Shown here: positions 3,001 through 35,070 of the stretch, piece after piece | How positions within the stretch are numbered: position 1 is the stretch's first letter | How the letters are laid out: each line of letters opens with the position of its first letter | IMG/VR virus record: IMGVR_UViG_3300017963_000062 | Coordinates: 1 to 55,059 of that record | DNA: 55,059 bases | From: a virus | Lineage: Duplodnaviria > Caudoviricetes | Strand: one strand, 5' to 3' | Notes under the pieces: generated by a model | What the model saw: only the letters and a program-made list of their open reading frames with translations | Databases searched by the model: none | What the model was told of the DNA's origin: nothing | Position numbers and translations under genes: made by a program

Positions 3001-4803
3001 TGGAACTAACCCTAATATTGTTCCTTCGGCTACGATCAATTTCATGCTTTTAACAATTTCTTCTCTTGCGAAAATGGAATTATCAACAAGCATCTCTAGT
3101 TTTTCATTCCATTCGTCAAGGCTTCCAACTGCCGCCTCTCCAAATTCTTTTGTAAAACCTTTAACTGTAAACGTAAATTGATTCATTACTGCTTGAAATT
3201 TGATAAACTTATCTTGAGCTGCAATAAGTGAGTTAATTAATTTATGTCCAAGGCTTTCTATCAAAGATCCTATCCATGACATGGCCAGCGCAATGGCACC
3301 AGCAAGGCTTGTGGTCAATATGGAAACAAATTTTAAGACTTGTCCCGTACCTCTCACAAAAGCATTATCGCTTTGTTCCATTGCATACCCAAGGCCCAGC
3401 AAAGCAGGTGCCAATATTCCAACAGCTTCTACAGCACTCAACAAGGAAAGTGAGAAAGTGCCTCTAATCGTTTTAGCTGTGTTTATAGAAAGTTTTTTCA
3501 TCCCTTGCAAAACTTTGTCATATTTAGACGCTGCAACAGTTAAAAAATCTACAGGCTTTTTAACTGCTGAGGCTGTTTCCTTGAATGACTTCTTGACGCC
3601 TACAGCAAAATCAGAGGCTGTCCAGGCAGCTTTATTCATCGCATTACGCACTATCTCGAATTCTGAAGCTATAGTTAGACCTATCGCCCCGACCGCTGTA
3701 ACCTTCAGAGTGTCCAATGCAACACCAAACCTTTCAGACCACTTAATTGCATCATCATATTTTTCTTTTACGGTATCAAAACTTTCTTTCACAACATCTT
3801 TTATAACTGCTGTTTTGGCAGAAAAATCCACAACAGAATCTGATATTTTGTTTATCTGGTCTGCAAGGTTTGGATTGCCTTTTATTCTGGCAATATTTGA
3901 CATTAAGGATAGAAGTCTTGTAACTTTCTTCAACCTTTCCGGGTCTGATAAAAATTCTAGAATATCTATAAAATTTACAATTTGTTGAGACAAGAAAGCA
4001 AAAGCATTTTGTACACTTTTAACTATATTGGCAATCTTGTTGTATATTCTCGTGAAAACGCTTACTTGCTCGGCACTTTTCTTAGTCGCCTTTGTAACTT
4101 TTATGGTTTCTTTTGTAGTTTCAGAAAGTTGATCCCTGTATTTTGATATATTCTCACTCAAACCATTTACAGTTTTTGCAAGTACAATATTTTTATTTGC
4201 GCTATTCTCTATATTTCTCTCATATTTTTCCTGCAAATCCATCGACTGTTTTATTATGTCGTTGTTTTTTTCTATTGAATTCTGCAATTCTGTAAATTGT
4301 CTTGATGTATCAATTTCAAATTCTGCTTTGCCGCTCAAAACCTTGTCAAGATCGCCTTTCTTTTTTGTAACGCTGTCAATAAAACCTTCTACGCTTTGAG
4401 TGTTTTGATTCATGGATGATGAAACAGAATCAGAAAGTTTCAAAAAATCTTCAGACAAGCTTGATATCTCAGAGGAAAGATTAGAGTAATCATCTGTAAC
4501 CTTTTGTACCTCTGCTCTATGATTTTCAGATGACTTTGACATTTTGTTGAAGTGGTCTTGCTTTGCCACCATTGCAAACTTTGACATTAACGCGGAAGCC
4601 TTTAATGTTGTCTTTGACAATGATTCTGCAATCCTTTTATACTTTCCTTCGATCTCATCCATTGATGAAGATGTTTTAGTGGCTGATCTTTCGGCTTTTT
4701 CAGAAAGTGATGAAAAGGCGTTACCTATATCATTCAACGCTCTTTTTGTATCTTTGTTGTTGACTTCAATGTCAATAACCAGCTTGGTTTTATCTATAGC
4801 CAT
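1..4803 (-). CDS. Tail tape measure protein, N-terminal part (continues across the junction to 53998; ~1927 aa total)
   Basis: ATG at 4803 (MAIDKTKLVIDIEVNNKDTKRALND...). Missing from the ORF track because there is no stop before the window edge. Lies directly after the tail chaperones; helical Ala/Lys/Glu-rich with hydrophobic segments and Trp-periodic repeats; frame joins ORF 53998..55050. Confidence 0.85.
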   Translation of the reverse strand, partial: MAIDKTKLVIDIEVNNKDTKRALNDIGNAFSSLSEKAERSATKTSSSMDEIEGKYKRIAESLSKTTLKASALMSKFAMVAKQDHFNKMSKSSENHRAEVQKVTDDYSNLSSEISSLSEDFLKLSDSVSSSMNQNTQSVEGFIDSVTKKKGDLDKVLSGKAEFEIDTSRQFTELQNSIEKNNDIIKQSMDLQEKYERNIENSANKNIVLAKTVNGLSENISKYRDQLSETTKETIKVTKATKKSAEQVSVFTRIYNKIANIVKSVQNAFAFLSQQIVNFIDILEFLSDPERLKKVTRLLSLMSNIARIKGNPNLADQINKISDSVVDFSAKTAVIKDVVKESFDTVKEKYDDAIKWSERFGVALDTLKVTAVGAIGLTIASEFEIVRNAMNKAAWTASDFAVGVKKSFKETASAVKKPVDFLTVAASKYDKVLQGMKKLSINTAKTIRGTFSLSLLSAVEAVGILAPALLGLGYAMEQSDNAFVRGTGQVLKFVSILTTSLAGAIALAMSWIGSLIESLGHKLINSLIAAQDKFIKFQAVMNQFTFTVKGFTKEFGEAAVGSLDEWNEKLEMLVDNSIFAREEIVKSMKLIVAEGTILGLVPKQMMKLSEIAVDVASNTGRKVSEVTQLMVNSLGMTAQSVLGLGIDIRDATIENSKMLDSTGLLVNQLTREEKVQVRLQALIKKTNAIRGASASAIDTVAGQTMLLTKEQDELSRKMAETGVATRAYLKVLIKLHRWWNSMPEALLKAIGMTRDILGVTLIITGKIIKYTFTLMGLILAYKFLAAAAKAYLGVNIAIIGTLKTIFLRILPLIALIWLFYDAFKELTEKSVAFMAVIRDLGLALGFLSDEIEETNEKTAETKSILEKLIGFISRSAITVLTGLAQSFLYLQKALLSLRKLLVDDQAVLFEYNKELHRIDTLINTLTKDTENYGLTIDYFTNSAIAATEAQKGYGDEAKKNMDLVESFRKRVRELADSMMKGFDPELERQVALADKFEQTTLKIKKLNAEMQNIFNIKGTEKELANKIVEKRKALLQEEINQLRIRNDILKETDTAILDKSIEIANLEGKGIESIKIRSKIEIEAVNKQIEGMKKIGKLDDELLKKLNRRIALIKKSTELSIKQAKQRKEEERDKKQFSALEKIIAKNGELQKSIADFGADQETRINNQFNREIDLIIKTRDHLRSKRLLTSEIEKQLKMQRELLGVAREQQIEEARKQQQSQRQQVAGDVGSALGGVAELFEGASQAFGQSMSGFLGQASTAMAEMSASMGSMIIGIILKIPDILKGVASLVDKITDFPKMLYEAFGALFDSLTRFVQEFIPNLIESIPKSLFQSAEFIEGIVTAFETLVDQLPSIIESMMETLPDALIKMIVASMRSARLITSIIKLYFQALPKIFVEIVKMLPELIKAVLRGVSEGFTSMFGDLPNKVEEGINQANKKLQEAFGKTSQLFRVAAEEAGMGASSPDEIAAAMLEGSKKSMLWIEKKWKELWRWITGVWKKLWGELEKIWDGIIDLVRNGFAAIWDLATKIWRGLWSFAENLWKTMWSLAETLWKKLWSNATEAWDKIWALAQEVWNGLWSMATDIWDGIWSTAQRIWNGLW

Positions 4804-7076: not shown

Positions 7077-7541
7077 CTAGCAGGCACTTCTAGTAATTGG
7101 CTCGTAATACTCTACCTGGACACCAATGGTTGATATGTAATTCGGGTCAAGCATGTGTAGGTCTGTCACAGAATCGATCAACGTGACGCTGGTCACGTAA
7201 TTCAAGCCTAGCTTTGGATCTTCCATAATCGCTCTTTTAACCGATTCTTCCAAATCCCATAGCTCTTTTTGATCGACAACGCCCAGCTCTTCCGTCGTCC
7301 TCATGCAAATCTCTACAGCCAAAAACCATTGTGTTCTTGACCTTGACATTTCATGATTGACAGTAGCAGACAAGTCGATAATCTGAACCGCTGGCAGCTC
7401 GAAATCTTGGTAGTCGGATATGTTTATCTTCACTTTGTCAAACGATACCACGCCTATATCGTGCGAGTACCCTCCAGCAATGGTAACACCCTCTACTCTC
7501 GATTTCAGAGCGTCGGCAATCTGTGCCTTGAATCCCGCCAT
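7077..7541 (-). CDS. Putative tail terminator/completion protein
   Basis: 154 aa immediately upstream of tail tube; synteny only. Confidence 0.5.
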   Translation of the reverse strand: MAGFKAQIADALKSRVEGVTIAGGYSHDIGVVSFDKVKINISDYQDFELPAVQIIDLSATVNHEMSRSRTQWFLAVEICMRTTEELGVVDQKELWDLEESVKRAIMEDPKLGLNYVTSVTLIDSVTDLHMLDPNYISTIGVQVEYYEPITRSAC

Positions 7542-7598
7542 GCTCTATTCTCGAATATTTTGTTTAAACGCTGTGTGTCAGAATTATGGCATATAACC

Positions 7599-8078
7599 TT
7601 AGATTGCATCAAGCATATATTGAACAATACGCGTTTTATGCTTTTCATAAGCAGGGTAAAGGTACGGCCTTCCTTGCTTGTCTATCCGTCTTTGATGTGC
7701 TCTAACCCTTGCTATGGTTGCCTTTTCTAGGCTCCTTCCAAATGCTCTGGTAATGACTCGATTGTGGGATCTTACAGGCACTTGCCCATGAAAACCAAAT
7801 TCCCAAAAAGCGGCATAAGGCACCCCAAAAGATCCAATCGAAATCCCGTTTACATCCCCGCGCTTGTAGAATTCCCAGCGAAGGGAGTTAATAAGACGCC
7901 CGGTGTCAATGAGTCCTTGACGCCTTACATTTAGTTTTGCCTGGGATGTGATGAGAATGGCGGCCCTTTGCAAAGCTCTTTTGACCGCTGTAGAATCTGG
8001 TGCAGCAGCCGCCTGCCTTTCTTTGATCTTTTCTATGATGCTCCTCATGTTCAGCATTCGTACTTTAAAGCTGTCCAT
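7599..8078 (-). CDS. HK97 gp10-like tail completion/morphogenesis protein
   Basis: Motifs DTGRLINSL, VPYAAFWEFG, GRPYLYPA. Confidence 0.7.
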   Translation of the reverse strand: MDSFKVRMLNMRSIIEKIKERQAAAAPDSTAVKRALQRAAILITSQAKLNVRRQGLIDTGRLINSLRWEFYKRGDVNGISIGSFGVPYAAFWEFGFHGQVPVRSHNRVITRAFGRSLEKATIARVRAHQRRIDKQGRPYLYPAYEKHKTRIVQYMLDAI

Positions 8079-10638: not shown

Positions 10639-11822
10639 TCTAATTGTGCAAGACCAGATGATATATCGTCATAAATGTGGATATGAATGTAATCGTCATT
10701 TCCAATTCCGTAAGTTCCAGATTTTCTGATTATGAAGGAAAGTTCTGGCGCGAAAGTAGCAACAAATTGATCTTCCCCCGCTTGAACGTCGATTCTAAAA
10801 GCGTTGCCCGGTTGCGGGAAAGAGAAATAGTTTTTGAAATCTTCGGTTGTGAGTATTCCTGGAAGTGTTGTTATTTCGTTGTCAGATTTGATTTCAACCG
10901 ATATTCCCGAACCTCTTGACTGAGAACCAAGAGGCTGATTTTTACATAAAAATTGCCCGAATTTTATTCCGGAACAACCGCCATAACAACGTATCTGCGA
11001 TATGAACAGGTCTTCGTTGTTGTCAACTGGTACAGTGTACCTACACTTATTTTCTGTATAACTGGCTTCATCGCAATCCTGCCGCATGTCCTTGCTTGGA
11101 ATTGTTTCGGTATTGTAAAAGAATTCAAAAAACCTTTTTCCAAGACCGCCAGGAATAGAAAGAACCGTACCAGTTATGCCGAAAAATCCAAGCCTGCCTG
11201 GATCGTTTGGGGATCTCGCAAGTTCTGCCGCTTTCGATCGCCTTACGATGGAACCGTTTGCAATGGTGCATATTGTCAAGCCACTGCATGTTACAGTCCA
11301 TGATGATCTTGTTCCCCACTCGTTCATCAACCTTGATGCAATGTGTACATATCCAAAATCCTTTGCAACGTCACACTTCCAGTTGGCAAGAATAAAATTT
11401 GTATCGGCGTTTAATCCTACACATACATTTTCTGCTACCTCCCTTTCGGGATTGTCGTTGGCCACATCTGAAGCCGTGACTGTATAAGTATAGTCCACTG
11501 CTGGGTAAAGAGTAGTGCCAATTGGAGTAACTGCTGCTGGGATCTCTACCCTTACTGTATCGCCTGCCGAACCTATCCCGTTTGCATCTTCAAGGGTGCC
11601 GCCAAAAAAGAAGAAATCTGTACCTTGTGGATCAAGTCCAAATGTTGATTGAACTGTCACAATTGAACTGGTTTCCAACCTGTTTACTCCCGCCGACCTG
11701 CTTACATCGGCGCAATAATCATTGTCATCGTCACATAGCTTGGCTCTCTGTGACGTTGGCCACGCAGCACCAAAAACAAGAAGCAAGCACATGCCTGCAA
11801 GGAATGAAGCGGCTTTTCTCAT
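10608..11822 (-). CDS. Cys-rich protein with N-terminal signal-peptide-like segment
   Basis: MRKAASFLAGMCLLLVFGAAW N-terminus; many Cys; AGGAG RBS. Confidence 0.55.
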   Translation of the reverse strand: MRKAASFLAGMCLLLVFGAAWPTSQRAKLCDDDNDYCADVSRSAGVNRLETSSIVTVQSTFGLDPQGTDFFFFGGTLEDANGIGSAGDTVRVEIPAAVTPIGTTLYPAVDYTYTVTASDVANDNPEREVAENVCVGLNADTNFILANWKCDVAKDFGYVHIASRLMNEWGTRSSWTVTCSGLTICTIANGSIVRRSKAAELARSPNDPGRLGFFGITGTVLSIPGGLGKRFFEFFYNTETIPSKDMRQDCDEASYTENKCRYTVPVDNNEDLFISQIRCYGGCSGIKFGQFLCKNQPLGSQSRGSGISVEIKSDNEITTLPGILTTEDFKNYFSFPQPGNAFRIDVQAGEDQFVATFAPELSFIIRKSGTYGIGNDDYIHIHIYDDISSGLAQLECLAEGFRQE

Positions 11823-11900
11823 TGTTTTCTCCTAAAAAAAGTGGGGCTGGTTATGAGATTTAGGACCGGACACCCCCCCCGAAACGGTCACATGATATGA

Positions 11901-12500
11901 TTAGGTTGTTTCTTCAATGTATTGGATTGTGGAATATCCATCATTGGCTCTATCCCTATTAGTCGCCAGTACTTGGATTCCAACAGTCCCATCCCCCACA
12001 ACTTCACACATTGGAAAGTTGAGTTCTACAACTGGGCTAGCTGGCGATGTTACAACCTTTCCCCATGTTGTAAGTGTATCAACGCCGTTATATTCGCCAA
12101 TTTCCCATGTTACCAGTGACAAGGATGAAAGAGTAACCTTGATTTCCTTGGCTGTTTTGGCGTTTGTCACAACAGCATCATGCGCGTCTGTAGCATCCTT
12201 TGCCATGGAGTCATGAAGATGGTAGGAAAAATTTTTGTCAGAATCTGAGCTGGGAACAACAACCACCTTAACATTTCCATCCGGGTCAGTCCTTGGGATA
12301 ACAAGGCTTGGTGTTGCTTCGTCTGTCTTAAAAAACACAGGAACGGCAAAATCATTTGTTCCTGGTGTAATTGTATCTCCGTCTTGCCCAACTGTTACAA
12401 AGTCTGTAGCGGTGGAACCGGACTGGCCATCAACAAGTTTGATTTTAAATTCGTCATCTCTGTAAGTTTTTACGATTTGGGCTTCGTTAAATTCTGCCAT
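11901..12500 (-). CDS. Hypothetical, probable structural/decoration protein
   Basis: Beta-rich Thr/Val/Asp protein downstream of the capsid gene; ATG 12500 after AAGGAG. Confidence 0.5.
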   Translation of the reverse strand: MAEFNEAQIVKTYRDDEFKIKLVDGQSGSTATDFVTVGQDGDTITPGTNDFAVPVFFKTDEATPSLVIPRTDPDGNVKVVVVPSSDSDKNFSYHLHDSMAKDATDAHDAVVTNAKTAKEIKVTLSSLSLVTWEIGEYNGVDTLTTWGKVVTSPASPVVELNFPMCEVVGDGTVGIQVLATNRDRANDGYSTIQYIEETT

Positions 12501-24795: not shown

Positions 24796-25401
24796 ATGTC
24801 CAATATAACTAGGGAACAGTGGTTAAAAAGAATGGCAAAACACTTGAGCAGAGAGTTTAAACGGCAGTTTTACACAGTACCAGAAAACATAAGGGTATCA
24901 TGTGGTTTGCCAAGTTCAAGAGCCTTTGGAGCTAAAAGGAAAACAATTGGCCAATGTTGGGACAAGGCCGCTTCAGACGATAAACATTTTGAAATATTTG
25001 TTAGTCCGACCGTGGACGATCCAATTGAAGTTGCCGCTACATTGGCTCATGAGATGGTTCACGCTGTCGTTGGTTTAAAGGCTGGACATAAAAAGCCATT
25101 TGTTGACTGCGCAAGATCCATAGGCTTGGAAGGCAAGCCAACGGCAACAGTGGCAGGTTTAAGACTAAAGGAATTTATAATTGCTGGACTCGAAAAAATA
25201 GGTCAATATCCACACGCCAAGATTGACTACTCAAGCAAAAAAAAGCAGGGCACAAGGCTTGTTAAGGTGGCTTGCCCTAACCAAGAGTGCGACTTTTTGG
25301 AAGAGCTTGGGAAGGTCTACAGTGTCAGAATGTCGGCGCAGGTCATCGAATACGGGCTACCTGCGTGCGGGTGTTGTCAAGAAACAATGGTGGAGGTCTA
25401 A
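24796..25401 (+). CDS. SprT-like zinc metalloprotease-domain protein
   Basis: TLAHEMVH...GH motif plus C-terminal Cys cluster. Confidence 0.7.
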   Translation: MSNITREQWLKRMAKHLSREFKRQFYTVPENIRVSCGLPSSRAFGAKRKTIGQCWDKAASDDKHFEIFVSPTVDDPIEVAATLAHEMVHAVVGLKAGHKKPFVDCARSIGLEGKPTATVAGLRLKEFIIAGLEKIGQYPHAKIDYSSKKKQGTRLVKVACPNQECDFLEELGKVYSVRMSAQVIEYGLPACGCCQETMVEV

Positions 25402-25608
25402 ATGAGAGAAAAGAAAGTTCGGGCAAGTGTTTACTTGTCGGAACACTTGACACAAATAGCTGTCAAAACAATGGGTTCAAAAAGTAAATTTGTTGCGGAA
25501 GCATGTAGATACTACATAAACAATGGAGGTTTGGAAAAATGGGCAAAGGAGAACGAAAAAAATGAAGCTGATGGAGCTAAAGGGATTGTACGTAACCCTA
25601 AAAGATAG
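25402..25608 (+). CDS. Ribbon-helix-helix-like small regulator
   Basis: RASVYLSE...SKSKFVAEAC pattern. Confidence 0.45.
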   Translation: MREKKVRASVYLSEHLTQIAVKTMGSKSKFVAEACRYYINNGGLEKWAKENEKNEADGAKGIVRNPKR

Positions 25609-25786
25609 GGGTGTTTTTAAAGGAATCAGAGGTGAATATCTGCCAATGGATTGTTTGACCGACAACTTGGAAGGCTTAATTGACATAGCTTTAGAGGCTG
25701 ATCGTTTAAACCAGATGGATTTGCAAGGGACTGTACACCATGACTATACACAACTGCGAAAGTTGCTCGGAAGATTCGAGGATTGA
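25523..25786 (+). CDS. Hypothetical protein
   Basis: In-operon ORF; real start probably ~25562. Confidence 0.4.
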   Translation: MEVWKNGQRRTKKMKLMELKGLYVTLKDRGVFKGIRGEYLPMDCLTDNLEGLIDIALEADRLNQMDLQGTVHHDYTQLRKLLGRFED

Positions 25787-25997
25787 AGAAGATTTTGGCT
25801 TCGTTGCAAAGGGTTTGCAGGTGGAGCTAATACGCAAAGGCATAGAGGTATTTGGCAATCAATCTGCTATTGCAAGGGCTTGCGGCGTGTCTCGCCAATT
25901 GATATCTAGATACTATTGTGCAGACGCCGAAATGAAACACTCCTTTTACTTGTATCTTCAGAGTGTTATAGAGTCTGAGATTAAAGATAACGTTTAA
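25740..25997 (+). CDS. HTH DNA-binding protein
   Basis: GNQSAIARACGVSRQLISRY. Confidence 0.6.
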   Translation: MTIHNCESCSEDSRIEEDFGFVAKGLQVELIRKGIEVFGNQSAIARACGVSRQLISRYYCADAEMKHSFYLYLQSVIESEIKDNV

Positions 25998-26007
25998 ACA
26001 ATTATAT

Positions 26008-26073
26008 TGTCAATTTTTTGTTGACACTCATTTCTAAAAACCCTATAAGGAGGATGTCAACAACGTGTTGACA
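26008..26073 (+). promoter_or_regulatory. Strong sigma70-type promoter with two TGTCA-N9-TGACA inverted repeats
   Basis: TTGACA(26021)-17-TATAAG(26044); inverted repeats at 26008-26026 and 26055-26073. Confidence 0.7.
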
Positions 26074-26099
26074 CTAACTGGATAACTAAGGGGTGAGAG

Positions 26100-26279
26100 A
26101 TGACATACTTAATGAGCGAAAAAGATGGAATGCCAAAGACGGCAACCAACGTAAAGACAGGAACATTCGGGACTGTCTCTGAAATCTGGACAAACCTAAA
26201 AGGCGTTAAATACGTCACTGTTCACAGCTTTAACGGCAAAGTTAACTGGAAACTTTCAAACTGCAAGATTGAGGGGTAA
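26100..26279 (+). CDS. Small hypothetical protein (59 aa, below ORF-track cutoff)
   Basis: MTYLMSEKDG...; AGGGGTG RBS. Confidence 0.55.
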   Translation: MTYLMSEKDGMPKTATNVKTGTFGTVSEIWTNLKGVKYVTVHSFNGKVNWKLSNCKIEG

Positions 26280-26282
26280 GAG

Positions 26283-26456
26283 ATGAACAACAGAGCAATC
26301 GGGTCGTTTGAAGACCTTTTGGATCTTTGCATTGAAAATGAAGCCGACAGGCAGGATCTCGTTTCGGAACATGCAGACAGGATCAACTTGACTGAAAATG
26401 AGAAACTCATACTTCTAAGGGGTAATTTGAAATTCTGGAAAATAAGGGGTGAGTGA
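26283..26456 (+). CDS. Small hypothetical protein (57 aa, below ORF-track cutoff)
   Basis: MNNRAIGSFEDLLD...; GAGGGGT RBS; TGA overlaps next ATG. Confidence 0.55.
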   Translation: MNNRAIGSFEDLLDLCIENEADRQDLVSEHADRINLTENEKLILLRGNLKFWKIRGE

Positions 26457-26740
26457 TGAGCGAGAACATTACAATAAATTTTGAATACCGGTTGGCTCAC
26501 TATGACAACATCGAAGAATATGCATTCGACGAGCATGCCGATCCAAGCGGCCGGGGGCCTGGCACAGGCTTTGATGACATCGAAAGCGCAAAGCTTGCAA
26601 TTGCAGAATACGGGCATGACGGCCTTTGGATAATAGATATGTCTTTCGACAGCGGCGCAATGAAAGAAGTTTGCTTTTTGCTTGACGGCGAAGAGGTTGA
26701 GAATCCGAAGAAGAAAAACAGGTGGTCGAGGGATGATTAA
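26456..26740 (+). CDS. Acidic hypothetical protein
   Basis: Coupled ORF with RBS. Confidence 0.55.
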   Translation: MSENITINFEYRLAHYDNIEEYAFDEHADPSGRGPGTGFDDIESAKLAIAEYGHDGLWIIDMSFDSGAMKEVCFLLDGEEVENPKKKNRWSRDD

Positions 26741-27020
26741 GAATATAACACTAGAATTTGAAGAGGATGAGATTCAGCATCTGGCTTATGTGATATGCAG
26801 AAGTTTTCTTCATGAACAAACAGACAGGTTTCTGTTGAAAGACTTACAGAAAATGGACTTGGCAACATGTAACAGGTACTCGAAAGGAACATTGTTTTTC
26901 ACAGATGACTTATTAAAGGCAAAAATAATATTTTCCTTTTATGCTGAGGATTTTAATCCGATACTTCTTTCAGAAAATGGCGGTGATTGGTGCATTGCAG
27001 TTGATAAGGAGTTTCATTAA
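26733..27020 (+). CDS. Hypothetical protein
   Basis: MIKNITLEF...; overlaps previous stop. Confidence 0.5.
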   Translation: MIKNITLEFEEDEIQHLAYVICRSFLHEQTDRFLLKDLQKMDLATCNRYSKGTLFFTDDLLKAKIIFSFYAEDFNPILLSENGGDWCIAVDKEFH

Positions 27021-27023
27021 GAA

Positions 27024-27233
27024 ATGATTACAATATTGTCAAAAAAGACTGAATATCATTTGAAGATTGGCAGCGAGCGTTTCTTTTTTATAATCGATGA
27101 AAATAGATACAGGCTTGAAGACGCAGACGGAAACGAATATGCAAACAGCATGGGCCTTGCGAAATCGCCTAAATTTTTGAAAATACTTGAAGCGTGTCGC
27201 GACAAAGTAAAGCATGGGTATTGTAAGGTATAG
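27024..27233 (+). CDS. Hypothetical protein
   Basis: AAGGAG RBS; its 3' end runs into pentamer array A. Confidence 0.5.
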   Translation: MITILSKKTEYHLKIGSERFFFIIDENRYRLEDADGNEYANSMGLAKSPKFLKILEACRDKVKHGYCKV

Positions 27234-27590
27234 TATCGTTTTGGTGGAGTGGGTCAGAGTCATGTAAAGTAACGGCTGGGTGGAGCATCTTCTGGCAAAG
27301 GCTATGCAAGGTGAGGCGATAAATAGTTTAGTTTAGTTCAGTTTTGGTAAAGTGATGCATAGTTGAGTGTTGGCAATGTTTTGTTGAGCAGTCCAATGCT
27401 ATGGCAAAGTTATGGTTAGGTAATGTGTAGTGCAATTCAGTTTTGGTAAAGTGAGGTAATGTTGAGTATTGGCAATGTTTTGTTAAGCAGTCAAATGTTA
27501 TGGCAAAGTTAGGCGCAGTTTTGGTTTAAGTAATGGCAGGGTAAAGCGCGGTCAGTTACTGTTGTGGTTAGGTGTTGCGTATTTCAGTTG
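27217..27590 (+). ncRNA. Pentamer array A, (NGY-NN)n; candidate guide-RNA locus
   Basis: G/T-rich, 5-nt period, e.g. GGT aa AGT ga GGT aa TGT tg AGT at t; ~76-nt imperfect duplication 27337-27412/27436-27511. RNA status is inferred. Confidence 0.6.
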
Positions 27591-27608
27591 GGAAAGGATA
27601 AAACAAAA

Positions 27609-28124
27609 ATGAATATTGATGGAATAAGAGAAAAAGTTGTAAGGAACATTACTGGCGGTGTTGACGAAAAAATAAAGATAAAAAGAGAATCTAGTTCAGA
27701 TACAAGAACGTGTGATTATACTAAAGTTACAAAGGAAGAGCTTTACAAAAACTCACTATCACATATAAGTGATGTAAATCTAGGAATTAGTTATTTAATA
27801 AGAAAATTGAGAGAAGCCGCGCTTTTGCACGATGTTACAAAAACGTATGATATCGATAAATTCTACAACGACTTTAAAACAGGCTTTGAAAACACTGATT
27901 GGTGGGAAGAACATCAAAAAGTGGAAAGGCACCATTTTAATGATGGAAAATATATCCAAGATGATATCAACTTGATTGATGTACTTGAGCAAATTGTTGA
28001 TGGAGTGATGGCTGGCATGGCCAGAACAGGTAAATATCGACACGAGCCAATCAGCAATGAATTACTGCAAAGAGCATACAATAATACAGCAAAACTTTTA
28101 ATTGACAATACTTCAGTCGTATAA
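27609..28124 (+). CDS. HD-domain-like protein (DUF5662-like)
   Basis: SH...LLHDVTK...H....RHH...DVLEQIVD pattern; ATG 27609 after AAGGA. Confidence 0.5.
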   Translation: MNIDGIREKVVRNITGGVDEKIKIKRESSSDTRTCDYTKVTKEELYKNSLSHISDVNLGISYLIRKLREAALLHDVTKTYDIDKFYNDFKTGFENTDWWEEHQKVERHHFNDGKYIQDDINLIDVLEQIVDGVMAGMARTGKYRHEPISNELLQRAYNNTAKLLIDNTSVV

Positions 28125-28129
28125 GGAGA

Positions 28130-28426
28130 ATGTTAATAATGGGTGGAATACTTTTTAAAGGGCAATTGGGTGAAAAAGGGAACATGCGGCTGAATGCGAC
28201 GGAGTCTTTCCCGCTTTATCTTATGTTTCTTTTTTCATGTGAGGAGGAGCCACATTCAAAGGAGGCAAAAGACAGCGTTCGAGGATTTTTTGAAAAAGCC
28301 TTTGCCGAACTGCTTGACCAGGTTTTTTCCAAGTATGAAGCGGTAAAATTTGATTTTAATAAGACGCCAGAAGAAAACTACAAGATTCTTCGAAATTATC
28401 TGGAGAAGGAAAAGGCAAATGCATGA
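28130..28426 (+). CDS. Hypothetical protein
   Basis: AAGGAG RBS. Confidence 0.5.
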   Translation: MLIMGGILFKGQLGEKGNMRLNATESFPLYLMFLFSCEEEPHSKEAKDSVRGFFEKAFAELLDQVFSKYEAVKFDFNKTPEENYKILRNYLEKEKANA

Positions 28427-28787
28427 CATCAACACGTTTTACAAGTTGGACGAAAACAACGAAGTGCAGATCATGTCGCCGGAAGAGGTCGAAAGATTCG
28501 ATTGGAAGAGTCGCTGGCACATGAAAAGCAAAGCAGGCGTCGTGACTGTGTCAACAATTTTTCTTGTTATAAATCACAGATGGTTTGCTGGCAAGGCTCC
28601 ATTGTTGTTTGAAACCTGTCTGTTTCATGATGCCACGAATGAATCCTTGATGGTCCAAAGATATGAAACAGCTAAAGAAGCAGAAAAAGGTCATGATTAT
28701 TGGTGCGCAACAGTCAGAAGCAGACTTGGGATACTTCTTGAAGAACCAGTTAATAATCTCGATTTCATGCGAGAAAGTGTTCAATAA
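28419..28787 (+). CDS. Hypothetical phage protein
   Basis: VSTIFL..NH...PLLFET...RY.T..EA..GH pattern that I recognise from phage hypotheticals. Confidence 0.55.
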   Translation: MHDINTFYKLDENNEVQIMSPEEVERFDWKSRWHMKSKAGVVTVSTIFLVINHRWFAGKAPLLFETCLFHDATNESLMVQRYETAKEAEKGHDYWCATVRSRLGILLEEPVNNLDFMRESVQ

Positions 28788-28926
28788 ACATATCTTTATT
28801 GATCACCGGCGTAACATTGTTAACTTGCCGGCTTTATTTATAAAACAGAATTTATAGGGGTTTAATGATCACTTATAAATGCAGCTGAAATCTTTAACAG
28901 AATATTAAAAGGAATCGTTTAAACGC

Positions 28927-29172
28927 ATGGAAAAGAGAATTATCATAAATCCGACAAAGGAACAGTTTGATGATATTGGCAAGACTTATGAAATTTTAAT
29001 TTTTCTTATGGGCAAAGACGGTCTTCACCTCGCTTGCAACAGGATATTGAATGAGGTCTTGGCCGACATGAAAAGGAAGGGGTTAACAGAAGATAAGATC
29101 AAAGATATGTTTACACAAAGTATAACAAACGCTATCGATATAGCTTTTAAGCAAAATGACCTTGGAGTGTAA
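28927..29172 (+). CDS. Hypothetical protein
   Basis: AAGGA RBS with CGTTTAAACG between the RBS and ATG. Confidence 0.55.
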   Translation: MEKRIIINPTKEQFDDIGKTYEILIFLMGKDGLHLACNRILNEVLADMKRKGLTEDKIKDMFTQSITNAIDIAFKQNDLGV

Positions 29173-29455
29173 TGTTTCTGTAAGGTTGTGTGGTGTAGTT
29201 TGGGTATAGTGGAGTTGTGTGAAGTTATGGTTAGGTAAAGTTAGGTTTATTAAGGTACTCGTTGGCTAAGTTAAGTTTTGTAAAGTTCTTGGCTAAGTTA
29301 AGCAGCGTTGGGTTTGGATCATGTATAGTTTTGTAATGTTATGGTTAGGCAAAGTTAGGTTTATTAAGGTACTCGTTGGCTAAGTTAAGCAGCGTAGGGT
29401 TTGGGTTATGTATAGTTTTGTAACGTTTTTGGCTAAGTCAAGTATGATCTTGTTT
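29173..29455 (+). ncRNA. Pentamer array B, (NGY-NN)n, immediately upstream of the RAMP gene
   Basis: e.g. GGC ta AGT ta AGC ag CGT ag GGT tt; 52-nt duplication 29224-29275/29338-29389 with 1 mismatch. Confidence 0.65.
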
Positions 29456-29514
29456 ATAGTCATAAAGTTGGAATGGACAGTAAAAAATTATCAGAAATAA
29501 GTGAAAGGAAAAAA

Positions 29515-30387
29515 ATGTTTAAGTATATCAATATCAAGTATAAGTTGGTGGCAGAGCAATTAGGCACATGCACAGAGGCCAGCATTTACCATGAGCATGT
29601 TTTAAAAAAGGCTCAAAAGGAGATAAAAAAGGCCAATAGAATGCATAAAAAAGCAACCAAGGCGTTTGAAAAATTTAACGGCTGTGACGAAATATCAGAA
29701 ATTAAAGAGGTTGTGGAATTGCAGAGTATTATAAGATCTTACCAAGAGTGTTTAGGTAAAAAAGATCCTTTACCAGATAACCCGGAGGAGTTAATAGCTT
29801 ACTCCAAGGTTTGCGAAGAAGAATTTGACGCTATGGTTGCAGAAGGACAACAGCAAAAAGCAACGATATTTATGAAAGATGAGAATGGTTGGCCAAGAAT
29901 ATCGACGCACATGTTTTTAGGCAACTTCAAAGAAAATGCTAAAATAATAGCAAACAACAGCACCTTGGCAAAAGAAAAAAAGATGTTTAAGTCCAAAGTA
30001 TCCGTACAAGAAATGTTAACAATGGACGTTAAGCCAATCCAACCATTTGTTAAACCGTCGGAGGATATTATTAAAGACGATGATGGAAAACCAGTAATAT
30101 GCGAGAGGCCAATAAGGTTTGAACGGATGGGAAAAACCGAAACTGCGATAGCACTGAGCGAGCAACTTCCTATAGGAACAGAATACAGCGTGGATTTTAG
30201 GGTACGAGGTGACTCGCCTTTTGCTGACAATAAATTCCAAATTATTAAAGACCTTTTGGAATGTGGGAAAAATTGCGGTTTGGGGCAATGGCGTGGGTCC
30301 GGTGGCAAAGGCGCTTACATGTACAAAATAAAGGAAATTAAAAAATCTGAAATAAAACAAGATCCAAGATTCGCTGGCTGGAACTGA
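29515..30387 (+). CDS. Stand-alone Cas7/RAMP-like RNA-binding protein (Vipr-like)
   Basis: N-terminal strand plus EQLGT; IFMKDENGWPRISTHMFLGNFKENAK resembling the Cas7/Csm3 P.I....KG..R segment; SEQLPIGTEYSVDF; C-terminal Gly-rich loop GKNCGLGQWRGSGGKG. Start 29515 (AAGGA RBS) or 29473. Confidence 0.7.
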   Translation: MFKYINIKYKLVAEQLGTCTEASIYHEHVLKKAQKEIKKANRMHKKATKAFEKFNGCDEISEIKEVVELQSIIRSYQECLGKKDPLPDNPEELIAYSKVCEEEFDAMVAEGQQQKATIFMKDENGWPRISTHMFLGNFKENAKIIANNSTLAKEKKMFKSKVSVQEMLTMDVKPIQPFVKPSEDIIKDDDGKPVICERPIRFERMGKTETAIALSEQLPIGTEYSVDFRVRGDSPFADNKFQIIKDLLECGKNCGLGQWRGSGGKGAYMYKIKEIKKSEIKQDPRFAGWN

Positions 30388-30395
30388 CCATCTTT

Positions 30396-30746
30396 TAGGG
30401 CAAAGTGGGGGTAAGGCGTGGTGCAATAAAGTAGAGTGACAGTTTTGTCGAGTTAGATAAAGCAGCGTGGGGGTAAGGTGGGTTATCGTCCCGCGTAGGC
30501 AAAGCCTAGCGTAATACCGTCAGTGTATTGTATAGTAAAGGTACGACGCGTTAAAGTAAAGTGACAGTTTTGTCGAGTAAGACAAAGTTGCGTGACAGTT
30601 AGGTCCGGTCGAGCATAGTAGGGGTATGGTAAAGTTAGGTTATGGTAGTTTATGGCGTAGTGGCGTAGTGGTGGAGCCATGCATAGTTGCATCCTGTAGT
30701 TGCAATGTTTTACAACGTCATGCACAGCGAGGTTACGGTGAAGTTA
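30396..30746 (+). ncRNA. Pentamer array C, (NGY-NN)n, immediately downstream of the RAMP gene
   Basis: e.g. AGT ta GGT cc GGT cg AGC at AGT ag g GGT at GGT aa AGT ta GGT ta; AGTGACAGTTTTGTCGAGT occurs twice. Confidence 0.6.
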
Positions 30747-30965
30747 ATTAAATATTTGATACTAAATCAAATTTTGGAAGAAGATGAACATGATAAACAA
30801 CTGTACCATGACCATCTGATGACTCGACGCCTGGAGCACTTGAAAACCACGGAAGATACTATTAAAAGGCTTTTGGAGGTTAGAGAGAGTCACAAAAAAA
30901 AACTTATTTTGCTTGAGAAAAAAATAAAGGATTTGAAGCGGTTTAGTCGAGGTAAGGTCGAGTGA
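30738..30965 (+). CDS. Small coiled-coil hypothetical protein between arrays C and D
   Basis: GTG 30738 after GAGGT; A-rich coding-like composition interrupts the periodic sequence. Confidence 0.45.
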   Translation: MKLIKYLILNQILEEDEHDKQLYHDHLMTRRLEHLKTTEDTIKRLLEVRESHKKKLILLEKKIKDLKRFSRGKVE

Positions 30966-31535
30966 AGTGGAGTCAAGTTAAGGTTGTTCAATGTGAAGTG
31001 TCGCTTTGGTAAAATAGCGTCGAGTATCGCATAGGTTGACTGGAGTAAGGTAAAGTTATGGTTATTCAAAGTGAAGTATCGCTATGGTAAAGTATCATCG
31101 TGTTCGGTAGTGTTAAAGTAAGGTCTAGTATCATTTTGTGGAGCAGCGGTTGAGTTAAGTTGCGTAATTTTATGTCGAGTATTGCACAGGTAAAGTAGCA
31201 TTGTGTTCGGTAGTGGTAAAGTAAGGTCTAGTATCGTTTTGGTGGATTAATGCAAGGTCTTGCAGCGGTTGAGTTAAGTTGCGTAATGTTATGTCGAGTA
31301 TCGTTGAGTGAAGTTGAGTATTGGTTAAGTTGAGTCGAGTATCGTTGAGTGAAGTTGAGTATTGGTTAAGTTGGGTTAAGTTTTGTAGTGGTTAAGTAAA
31401 GTGTGGTAATGTTGAGTATTGGTTAAGTGAAGTTGAGTATTGGTTATGTTGAGTTAAGCAAGGTGAAGTCTTGGTATGTTGCAGCGATATGAAATAATGT
31501 TTAGGTAAAGTGAGGTAATGTTGAGTACATGTTGT
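30940..31535 (+). ncRNA. Pentamer array D, (NGY-NN)n in GGT-initiated modules
   Basis: Four consecutive 26-nt modules at 30982, 31008, 31034 and 31060; exact 40-nt repeat 31293-31332/31334-31373. Confidence 0.7.
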
Positions 31536-31653
31536 TGTTATTTCAAGCTTAGTTGGGCATGAAAAAACCCAGCTCATAAATTAATGAGATGGGTTAGGAA
31601 AGGAAATTGTTATGAATTTTCATAATTAAATATGCTTACACCATTAAATATGC

Positions 31654-31869
31654 TTAAGTAGCATACATTAATATTTGGGAATATGGAATGTCATATATTT
31701 TTTTCTCCCCGTCAGCATAAACAACTTCGCATTCTTCATAAAACGAAGTCCAGGCAACAATGGAATCGGTCCTTACAATTCGTTTAAACGTCGATTGTGT
31801 TCTGGTCTTCCGCCCATTTACCATAGTCATCTGTAACTTCGGTATCTTTTTGTATCTTTTTCTTTTCAT
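31654..31869 (-). CDS. Hypothetical protein
   Basis: 71-aa ORF overlapping the end of 31784..32347. Confidence 0.4.
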   Translation of the reverse strand: MKRKRYKKIPKLQMTMVNGRKTRTQSTFKRIVRTDSIVAWTSFYEECEVVYADGEKKIYDIPYSQILMYAT

Positions 31870-34998: not shown

Positions 34999-35070
34999 CA
35001 GGCTGGGAAGGACTTGAACCCTCTTCTAAAGATTTGGACTCTTTTGTTTTACCCGTTAAACTACCAGCCT
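34999..35070 (-). tRNA. tRNA-Trp(CCA)
   Basis: AGGCTGG/CCAGCCT acceptor stem, GTTT/AAAC D-stem, AAAGA/TCTTT anticodon stem with loop GTCCAAA, GAGGG-TTCAAGT-CCTTC T-arm, G discriminator; no encoded CCA. Confidence 0.8.

Follow-up and report, generated by a model that had tools for sequence, protein, structure and literature searches.

The window analysed here, a stretch of 55,059 nucleotides comprising the whole of IMG/VR virus record IMGVR_UViG_3300017963_000062, carries four arrays of tandem pentamers beside a gene for a Cas7/Csm3-like RAMP protein, and in these arrays the 5-nt register is repeatedly shifted by one extra base immediately before a GGY triplet. The locus is very likely a VIPR locus because it combines a RAMP fold, a Vipr-type G-loop, flanking arrays on the same strand, a complete virus genome, and repeats of a kind listed among the variants in the text of the VIPR discovery preprint (10.64898/2026.04.26.720920). 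The explanation that best covers the whole, which we consider probable without being secure, is that these are VIPR vrRNA arrays divided into guide units by the +1 slip and the GGY that follows it. VIPR is a new RNA-guided DNA-recognition system known so far through preprints of 2026; an N-GGY junction after 5n nt is a sharp, conserved rule from which precise expectations follow for where RNAs would end, how long filaments would be and how small a guide could be.

Layout of the locus and its RAMP protein

The virus record is a complete 55,059-bp genome with direct terminal repeats. No close relative of the whole genome was found among cultured phages, and blastn of 26900-31700 against cultured phages gave no match. 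The four G+T-rich arrays occupy intergenic regions of a plus strand operon of small ORFs (24796-31535) that is flanked by minus strand blocks. Array A (27214-27590, plus strand) consists of xGT/NN pentamers with +1 slips and contains a 99-nt higher-order repeat. Array B (29165-29445, plus strand; higher-order repeats of 114 and 87 nt) lies immediately 5′ of vipr (29473-30387, plus strand), and array C (30400-30700, plus strand; higher-order repeat of 125 nt) lies immediately 3′ of it. Array D (30940-31535, plus strand) comprises 94 pentamers and 21 six-nt units, 115 in all, with no non-repeat insert and with higher-order repeats of 41, 78, 103 and 119 nt. Between arrays C and D lies a small plus strand ORF of 92 amino acids read from a TTG (30687-30965), which has no Pfam or PHROG match and no homologue beside vipr among 81 related loci.

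The first ORF of the operon (24796-25401) is SprT-like at a sub-threshold score and matches phrog_6361, and the ORF 3′ of array A (27564-28124) has a sub-threshold match to DUF5662 (E 7e-5, 22.9 bits; cut-off 27). No Cas families were found in the 10 plus strand operon ORFs scanned against Pfam and PHROGs, and the TRF output for the window contains no CRISPR-like repeat. Rfam, run over the whole 55,059-nt window, called tRNA-Trp only and nothing in the arrays; this phage-encoded tRNA (CCA anticodon) lies on the minus strand at 34999-35070. A perfect 33-nt tandem repeat of 2.5 copies (39030-39111) lies inside a minus strand ORF (38388-39425). A promoter and terminator scan returned 25 elements where 19.3 were expected, an uninformative excess. 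In the public assemblies of both sequencing runs the locus is broken into short contigs at repeated modules, at 29237-29380 in array B and 31303-31373 in array D. No sequence variants were found in the two runs listed for the locus, both of them DNA, and the identical size and place of their contigs make it probable that a single data set was deposited under two entries; at the sole candidate joint the shorter side measures 23 letters, and the joint comes from a lower-depth contig.

The 304-amino-acid product of vipr has no Pfam or PHROG match, and its 110 homologues are all unannotated. Its AlphaFold model (pLDDT 80.7) has the RAMP fold, and the top Foldseek matches are Csm3, type VII Cas7 and Cas7-11 (E 3e-6). 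A single-sequence search gave a weak alignment (E 1.3) of residues 221-279 with the SUSP1 Vipr of known structure (36pp_D), and this chain was missed when a family profile was run on the PDB sequences; both results weigh against the VIPR identity. The G-loop (CGLGQWRGSGGKG) superposes CGLGQWR of the window protein on CGVGDWR of SUSP1, so that the two share the motif CG[LV]G[QD]WR. The Asp that reads the first G of the triplet in SUSP1 (10.64898/2026.04.26.720927) is Gln, Ala or Ser in the window's Vipr family, with Gln272 in the window protein itself, a loss that would fit the relaxed first triplet base of its arrays, and the pairing of the relaxed base with the Asp-to-Gln change offers a testable specificity switch. 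Some searches for relatives were negative: a single-protein search of IMG/VR for related loci, a family-alignment search of GTDB genomes and a family HMM run against 119 other pentamer-array loci each returned none.

The pentamer grammar and its conservation

VIPR systems pair a small phage-encoded RAMP protein (Vipr) with vrRNAs of GGY/NN pentamers (10.64898/2026.04.26.720920; 10.64898/2026.04.26.720927), and the text of the discovery preprint lists NNNGG, YNNNG and NNNNG as variant repeats (10.64898/2026.04.26.720920). Tandem repeats of a conserved triplet and a variable dinucleotide likewise flank vipr in the window, here as the variant xGT/NN, which falls in the “YNNNG” class as given in that text. 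The xGT triplet recurs at 5-nt steps in all four arrays. A dynamic-programming parse in which AGT and GGT were scored equally divides arrays A-D into 316 units, of which 252 are pentamers, 56 measure 6 nt and eight have other lengths; position 1 of the unit is A in 40%, G in 33%, T in 19% and C in 8%, position 2 is G in 88%, position 3 is T in 82% and C in 15% (Y 97%), and positions 4 and 5 are variable and C-poor. Readings of the arrays as TRAP-like sites or as G-quadruplexes were dropped with the finding of the RAMP gene and the excess of AGT over GGT.

The register can also be followed without a parse, as the distance from one GT to the next. Arrays A-D contain 120 such gaps of 5 nt, 37 of 6 nt and five of 4 nt, whereas 300 dinucleotide-preserving shuffles gave 28.4 ± 5.1 (maximum 46), 23 ± 5 and 36.0 ± 5.6, respectively; the 5-nt period is therefore real and the slips are almost only +1. 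The sequence-only reading had claimed that the extra base stands just before a GGT, and this is borne out: GGT follows 24 of the 37 six-nt gaps and 23 of the 120 five-nt gaps (Fisher p 5.8e-7, arrays A-D), as well as eight of 12 eleven-nt gaps, and the shuffles put a G after a 6-nt gap only 7.0 ± 2.4 times (maximum 15) against the 24 found. In the parse, GGY comes next after 39 of 56 six-nt units and after 45 of 248 five-nt units (p 2e-13; both p-values overstate the independence of the junctions because copies inside an array are related by duplication, although the 56 junctions comprise 47 distinct strings and the rule is also seen in independent loci). Parse and shuffles alike speak against slips that are random with respect to GGY. 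The junction recurs outside array D, as had been proposed, with GGY following 13 of 16 six-nt units in array A, 4 of 8 in array B (where it also follows four of five other slips) and 7 of 11 in array C, compared with 15 of 21 in array D; counted strictly within 30940-31535, GGY follows 15 of 20 six-nt and 13 of 94 five-nt units. The remaining 17 of the 56 +1 slips in the window (∼30%) have no GGY next. The extra base is T in 71% of window junctions and is not conserved across loci.

The slips cut array D into modules of 16, 41, 11, 31, 26, 21, 36, 31, 41, 26, 26, 26, 56, 41, 26, 31, 21, 31, 31, 26 and 6 nt, every one of which is 5n+1 long. After the first, they start on the plus strand at 30951, 30992, 31003, 31034, 31060, 31081, 31117, 31148, 31189 and 31215 in the first half of the array and at 31241, 31267, 31323, 31364, 31390, 31421, 31442, 31473, 31504 and 31530 in the second. 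Four consecutive 26-nt modules had been quoted earlier at 30982, 31008, 31034 and 31060, and their letters and coordinates are exact; the parse that went with them differs from ours in the degenerate stretch 30992-31086, where three slips are placed otherwise at near-tie scores and the earlier placement yields more GGT starts than the dynamic-programming one. Among the 52 modules counted in the window, the two commonest sizes are 5 units (17 modules) and 6 units (14 modules), and modules of 8, 9 and 11 units also occur.

Relatives of the window Vipr are encoded in nine IMG/VR and 72 metagenome loci, and 61 of these 81 have arrays on the vipr strand, while two have them on the opposite strand. 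Only vipr is common to the 81 loci: neither vap nor any other conserved neighbour gene was found among them, and no window ORF other than vipr has a homologue there. The accessory gene vap is a typical but not a universal neighbour of vipr, and stand-alone vipr genes are described in the text of the discovery preprint (10.64898/2026.04.26.720920). Vipr identity ranges from 24 to 62% over 45 non-redundant loci, between whose arrays no sequence can be aligned. In these loci GGT follows 434 of 505 six-nt gaps and 514 of 1897 five-nt gaps (p 2.7e-131), and four-nt gaps number 112 against the 505 of six nt. The nine IMG/VR relatives alone give 157 of 183 against 174 of 904, and the rule is near-absolute in some single loci, such as L127 (21 of 21) and L132 (22 of 22), the latter with a Vipr only ∼24% identical to that of the window. 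In relatives the module starts also favour GGY-A, with A in 54% against 27% at in-phase GGY. The comparison of module lengths that the earlier reader had proposed for homologous loci shows that the slip and its GGT are conserved and that each locus has its own narrow mode, between 5 and 9 units. The family-wide peak lies at 6 units (199 modules), followed by 5 (142), 7 (120) and 8 (63); lengths span 1 to 15 units and are mostly 5-8 pentamers. Neighbouring lengths show no serial compensation (lag-1 r -0.044 over 561 pairs, where the null gives -0.069 ± 0.043), and long and short modules do not alternate as they would if helical phase were being compensated.

How the arrays change is indicated by a comparison, over 572 positions, of eight segments of the window that are paralogous. 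The unit class is kept at 484 of the 572 positions and the slip positions are retained, and mismatches are found at 20 of 93 T1 (22%), 7 of 95 G2 (7%), 8 of 96 T3 (8%), 24 of 95 N4 (25%) and 21 of 94 N5 (22%) positions, so that T1, N4 and N5 diverge ∼3 times faster than G2 and T3. Between very close relatives (L127/L159/L160, L170/L193 and L144/L145) the flanks are >99% identical and the arrays differ by indels of 31-306 nt, from which it follows that array turnover is fast. It often but not always proceeds by whole modules: a 151-nt indel equals six whole modules and a 31-nt indel one, both placeable at module starts; a 192-nt indel, whose placement is unique, has both ends inside modules; and the placement of a 306-nt indel is ambiguous. 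That the punctuation would not be simple slippage, as the sequence-only reading had argued, is well supported by its retention in 45 loci, the depletion of -1 slips and the slip positions kept by paralogues, all of which suggest selection.

Possible roles of the junctions

The +1/GGY punctuation is not general to VIPR. In 35 other complex pentamer arrays, which were found through eight uninterrupted RGTNN units and are hence biased to slip-free runs, there are 23 six-nt and 909 five-nt gaps; many of these loci have ORFs of ∼180-230 amino acids with a C-terminal G[VIL]GD[WFY]RP motif. Three other loci slip in the opposite direction: in L042 (reverse complement 11501-12071), L049 (reverse complement 7498-7850) and L086 (10691-11064) a 4-nt unit, “GGCa” or “AGTc”, precedes a GGT, giving a -1 slip every 10-14 units. 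There are 11, nine and five “GGCa” units in L042, L049 and L086, respectively, and ORFs with a Vipr-type G-loop adjoin the arrays in L042 and L049. These -1 slips fit the “1 nt overlapping” wording in the legend of Fig. S18 of the discovery preprint (10.64898/2026.04.26.720920), and the size of the modules they delimit fits the known vrRNA size of 9-16 repeats. Since -1 slips also cut other tail-less arrays, register slips look like a general punctuation for arrays of that kind; what sets the window's Vipr family apart is the +1 direction of its slips and the shortness of its modules.

Some of the other pentamer loci have features of their own. In L026 (692-752), and also in L080, L035 and L122, pentamer arrays alternate with folded elements of ∼50 nt in which an acceptor-like stem stacks on a hairpin resembling a T-arm, with GGTTCGACTCC in its loop. 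Neither ARAGORN nor Rfam calls these elements and their fold reaches a z-score of only -1.69; they may be tails of vrRNAs in imitation of tRNA minihelices. L018 (reverse complement 3363-3874) has a GGY/NN array in which “GGCTAATG” recurs by eye about every 68 nt, as if a +3 interruption separated runs of ∼13 units. L055 and L110 encode 201-amino-acid ORFs with the same G-loop stretch as the solved SUSP1 Vipr and are probably SUSP1-family loci.

In the SUSP1 filament, as described in its preprint, one protomer sits on each repeat and each GGY is held jointly by two neighbours (10.64898/2026.04.26.720927), and the NN bases are reported to read dsDNA with one target base skipped per unit (10.64898/2026.04.26.720920; 10.64898/2026.04.26.720927). 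By homology with that system, we infer that arrays A-D encode the vrRNAs of a phage-borne VIPR system and would be transcribed with the plus strand operon, that one Vipr protomer (29473-30387) would bind one pentamer, and that it would sequester xGU and leave the NN exposed to read competitor dsDNA with a one-base skip. Because two adjacent protomers would jointly hold each GGY, a 6-nt unit should misplace the neighbouring protomer. In arrays without 3′ tails, the extra base and the strict GGY behind it would break the 5-nt register; an in-phase filament would be expected to stop at the break and a new one to begin at the GGY, and modules of mostly 5-8 pentamers would then be separate guide or filament units. 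The transcript may also be cut at the N-GGY junction.

By this analogy the junction could well be a guide or filament boundary, an assignment we believe about as readily as we doubt it, and it is the favoured one among the boundary, processing site and filament kink offered by the sequence-only reading. It is favoured because -1 slips cut other tail-less arrays into vrRNA-sized modules of 10-14 units, because the Fig. S18 legend draws such junctions as vrRNA boundaries, because the triplet after a slip is strictly GG while triplets inside modules are relaxed, and because module length varies widely with no compensation between neighbours; the additional GGY-A preference at module starts and the 151-nt and 31-nt indels that equal whole modules point the same way. 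Against it stand the 192-nt indel that ends inside modules, the slips that lack a GGY, the small capacity of 5-6-unit modules, which specify 10-12 bases and fall well under the 9-16 repeats of characterised vrRNAs, and, for the analogy itself, the fact that the legend speaks of a 1-nt overlap and not of an extra base. A bolder form of the boundary reading, tentative and rather doubtful, would make the junction a punctuation code in which a +1 shift and a GG nucleation triplet, with no tails, ribozymes or necessary cleavage, divide one transcript among dozens of mini-filaments, each a single turn of 5-8 protomers that specifies 10-16 bases; ∼50 DNA “words” in 1.6 kb would be read combinatorially, and the sign of the shift would be family-specific and co-evolved with the protein. 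Should filaments of one turn, with 5-6 protomers, prove to be functional units, the known minimal guide size would fall, which would matter for engineering.

The junction might instead be a hinge, the long array acting as one guide in which the extra base forms a strain-relieving or register-adjusting bulge about once per turn and pairing crosses the junction. The commonest window modules, of 5-6 units, do match one turn of the SUSP1 filament, for which 5 subunits are given in the DNA-bound and 6 in the RNA-only state (10.64898/2026.04.26.720927), and each locus has its own narrow module mode of 5-9 units. A fixed structural kink is nevertheless disfavoured because modules can be as short as 1 unit and as long as 15, the window itself having some of 8, 9 and 11 units, and because their lengths are not compensated serially; other VIPR arrays run free of slips for 10-14 units or more, and strain relief leaves the strict GGY unexplained. 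We consider the hinge unlikely; if the junction were only that, it would still constrain filament mechanics. Inheritance without function would require that an ancestral 5n+1 module starting with GGT spread by tandem duplication. Higher-order repeats are indeed abundant, with periods of 41, 78, 87, 99, 103, 114, 119 and 125 nt, and unequal recombination would keep steps of module size, but the rule holds in 45 loci with unalignable arrays and Vipr proteins 24-62% identical, and it is stricter in those family loci (86%) than in the window (65%). Moreover, -1 slips there are ∼4.5 times rarer than +1 slips, the shuffles predict more 4-nt than 6-nt gaps, and T1 is free inside modules yet G at their starts, all of which makes a neutral by-product very unlikely.

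Even less probable, to the point of being hard to credit, is that the arrays are not guides at all and that their GU-rich repeats are a sponge or platform for some other oligomeric RNA-binding protein, or an element acting at the DNA level. TRAP binds triplets with 2-3-nt spacers, which the arrays resemble, and the strand is strongly G+T rich with little self-complementarity by eye. The neighbouring gene, however, encodes a RAMP with a Vipr-type G-loop, 61 of the 81 family loci contain both the gene and its arrays while sharing no further neighbour, and the same architecture is reported as an experimentally proven guide system in SUSP1 (10.64898/2026.04.26.720920).

On the guide reading the modules should have DNA targets. 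Searches for natural targets of any module or module pair, which covered large collections by exact match only, found none. An exact 11-unit module had 0 matches in IMG/VR, and an 8-unit module had 32 exact matches there, which is about the chance number and none of which extends. Windows of 10 units reached at best 18 of 20 against the collected loci, a figure that stands without a shuffled control, and a local spaced-seed search gave a real maximum of 22, which came from a repeat of low complexity, where shuffled guides reached maxima of 19-22.

Comparison with known systems

VIPR itself, degenerate triplets and tail-less staggered arrays are already known from the 2026 preprints. A +1 slip with an obligatory GGY, modules of 5-8 units and the conservation of both across a family were not found in the preprint text searched, and the +1 stagger may already be catalogued in their figures or supplements. 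According to the text of the discovery preprint, sRNA-seq confirmed only two architectures, neither of them staggered (10.64898/2026.04.26.720920).

The class 1 CRISPR systems resemble the locus in the fold of Cas7/Csm3, but neither a repeat-spacer array nor, among the 10 operon ORFs scanned, any other cas gene is seen in the window, unlike the repeat-spacer arrays and multi-subunit cas operons of CRISPR-Cas types III and VII; its step is 5 nt and not 6, and by homology only two of every five bases would pair. The quick turnover of the arrays in related phages is like that of CRISPR arrays. The type II VIPR systems of SUSP1 and a P. fulva prophage are closer, sharing a small phage RAMP gene beside intergenic arrays, on the gene's strand, of pentamers with a conserved trinucleotide and a variable dinucleotide, and also the G-loop motif CGxGxWR. 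The window Vipr is 304 amino acids long, however, not ∼200, and its model has an extra helical region at residues 36-123; in place of GGY its arrays have xGT, x being A in 40%, G in 33% and T in 19% of units, and the Asp that reads G1 has been replaced across its family. The 9-16-repeat vrRNAs with a structured 3′ tail that characterise type II are not seen in the window, whose arrays tile continuously for up to ∼600 nt and have no 3′ pseudoknot tail, no discrete ∼100-nt units and no conserved vap.

A survey of non-canonical repeats describes 21 clusters, WGT/NN and TGH/NN among them (10.64898/2026.10.21.760802). The WGT/NN-type clusters are like the window in their degenerate first triplet base and in the Vipr-like folds nearby, and the description given in that text does not mention register slips or modules. 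A close parallel for the junctions is offered by the “staggered” arrays described in the legend to Fig. S18, which are likewise tail-less and have neighbouring vrRNAs displaced by 1 nt; according to that legend the displacement is an overlap of 1 nt, whereas in the window it is an extra base. The -1-slip arrays of L042, L049 and L086 differ from the window family in the same direction, and their modules are 10-14 units long where those of the window family are 5-8.
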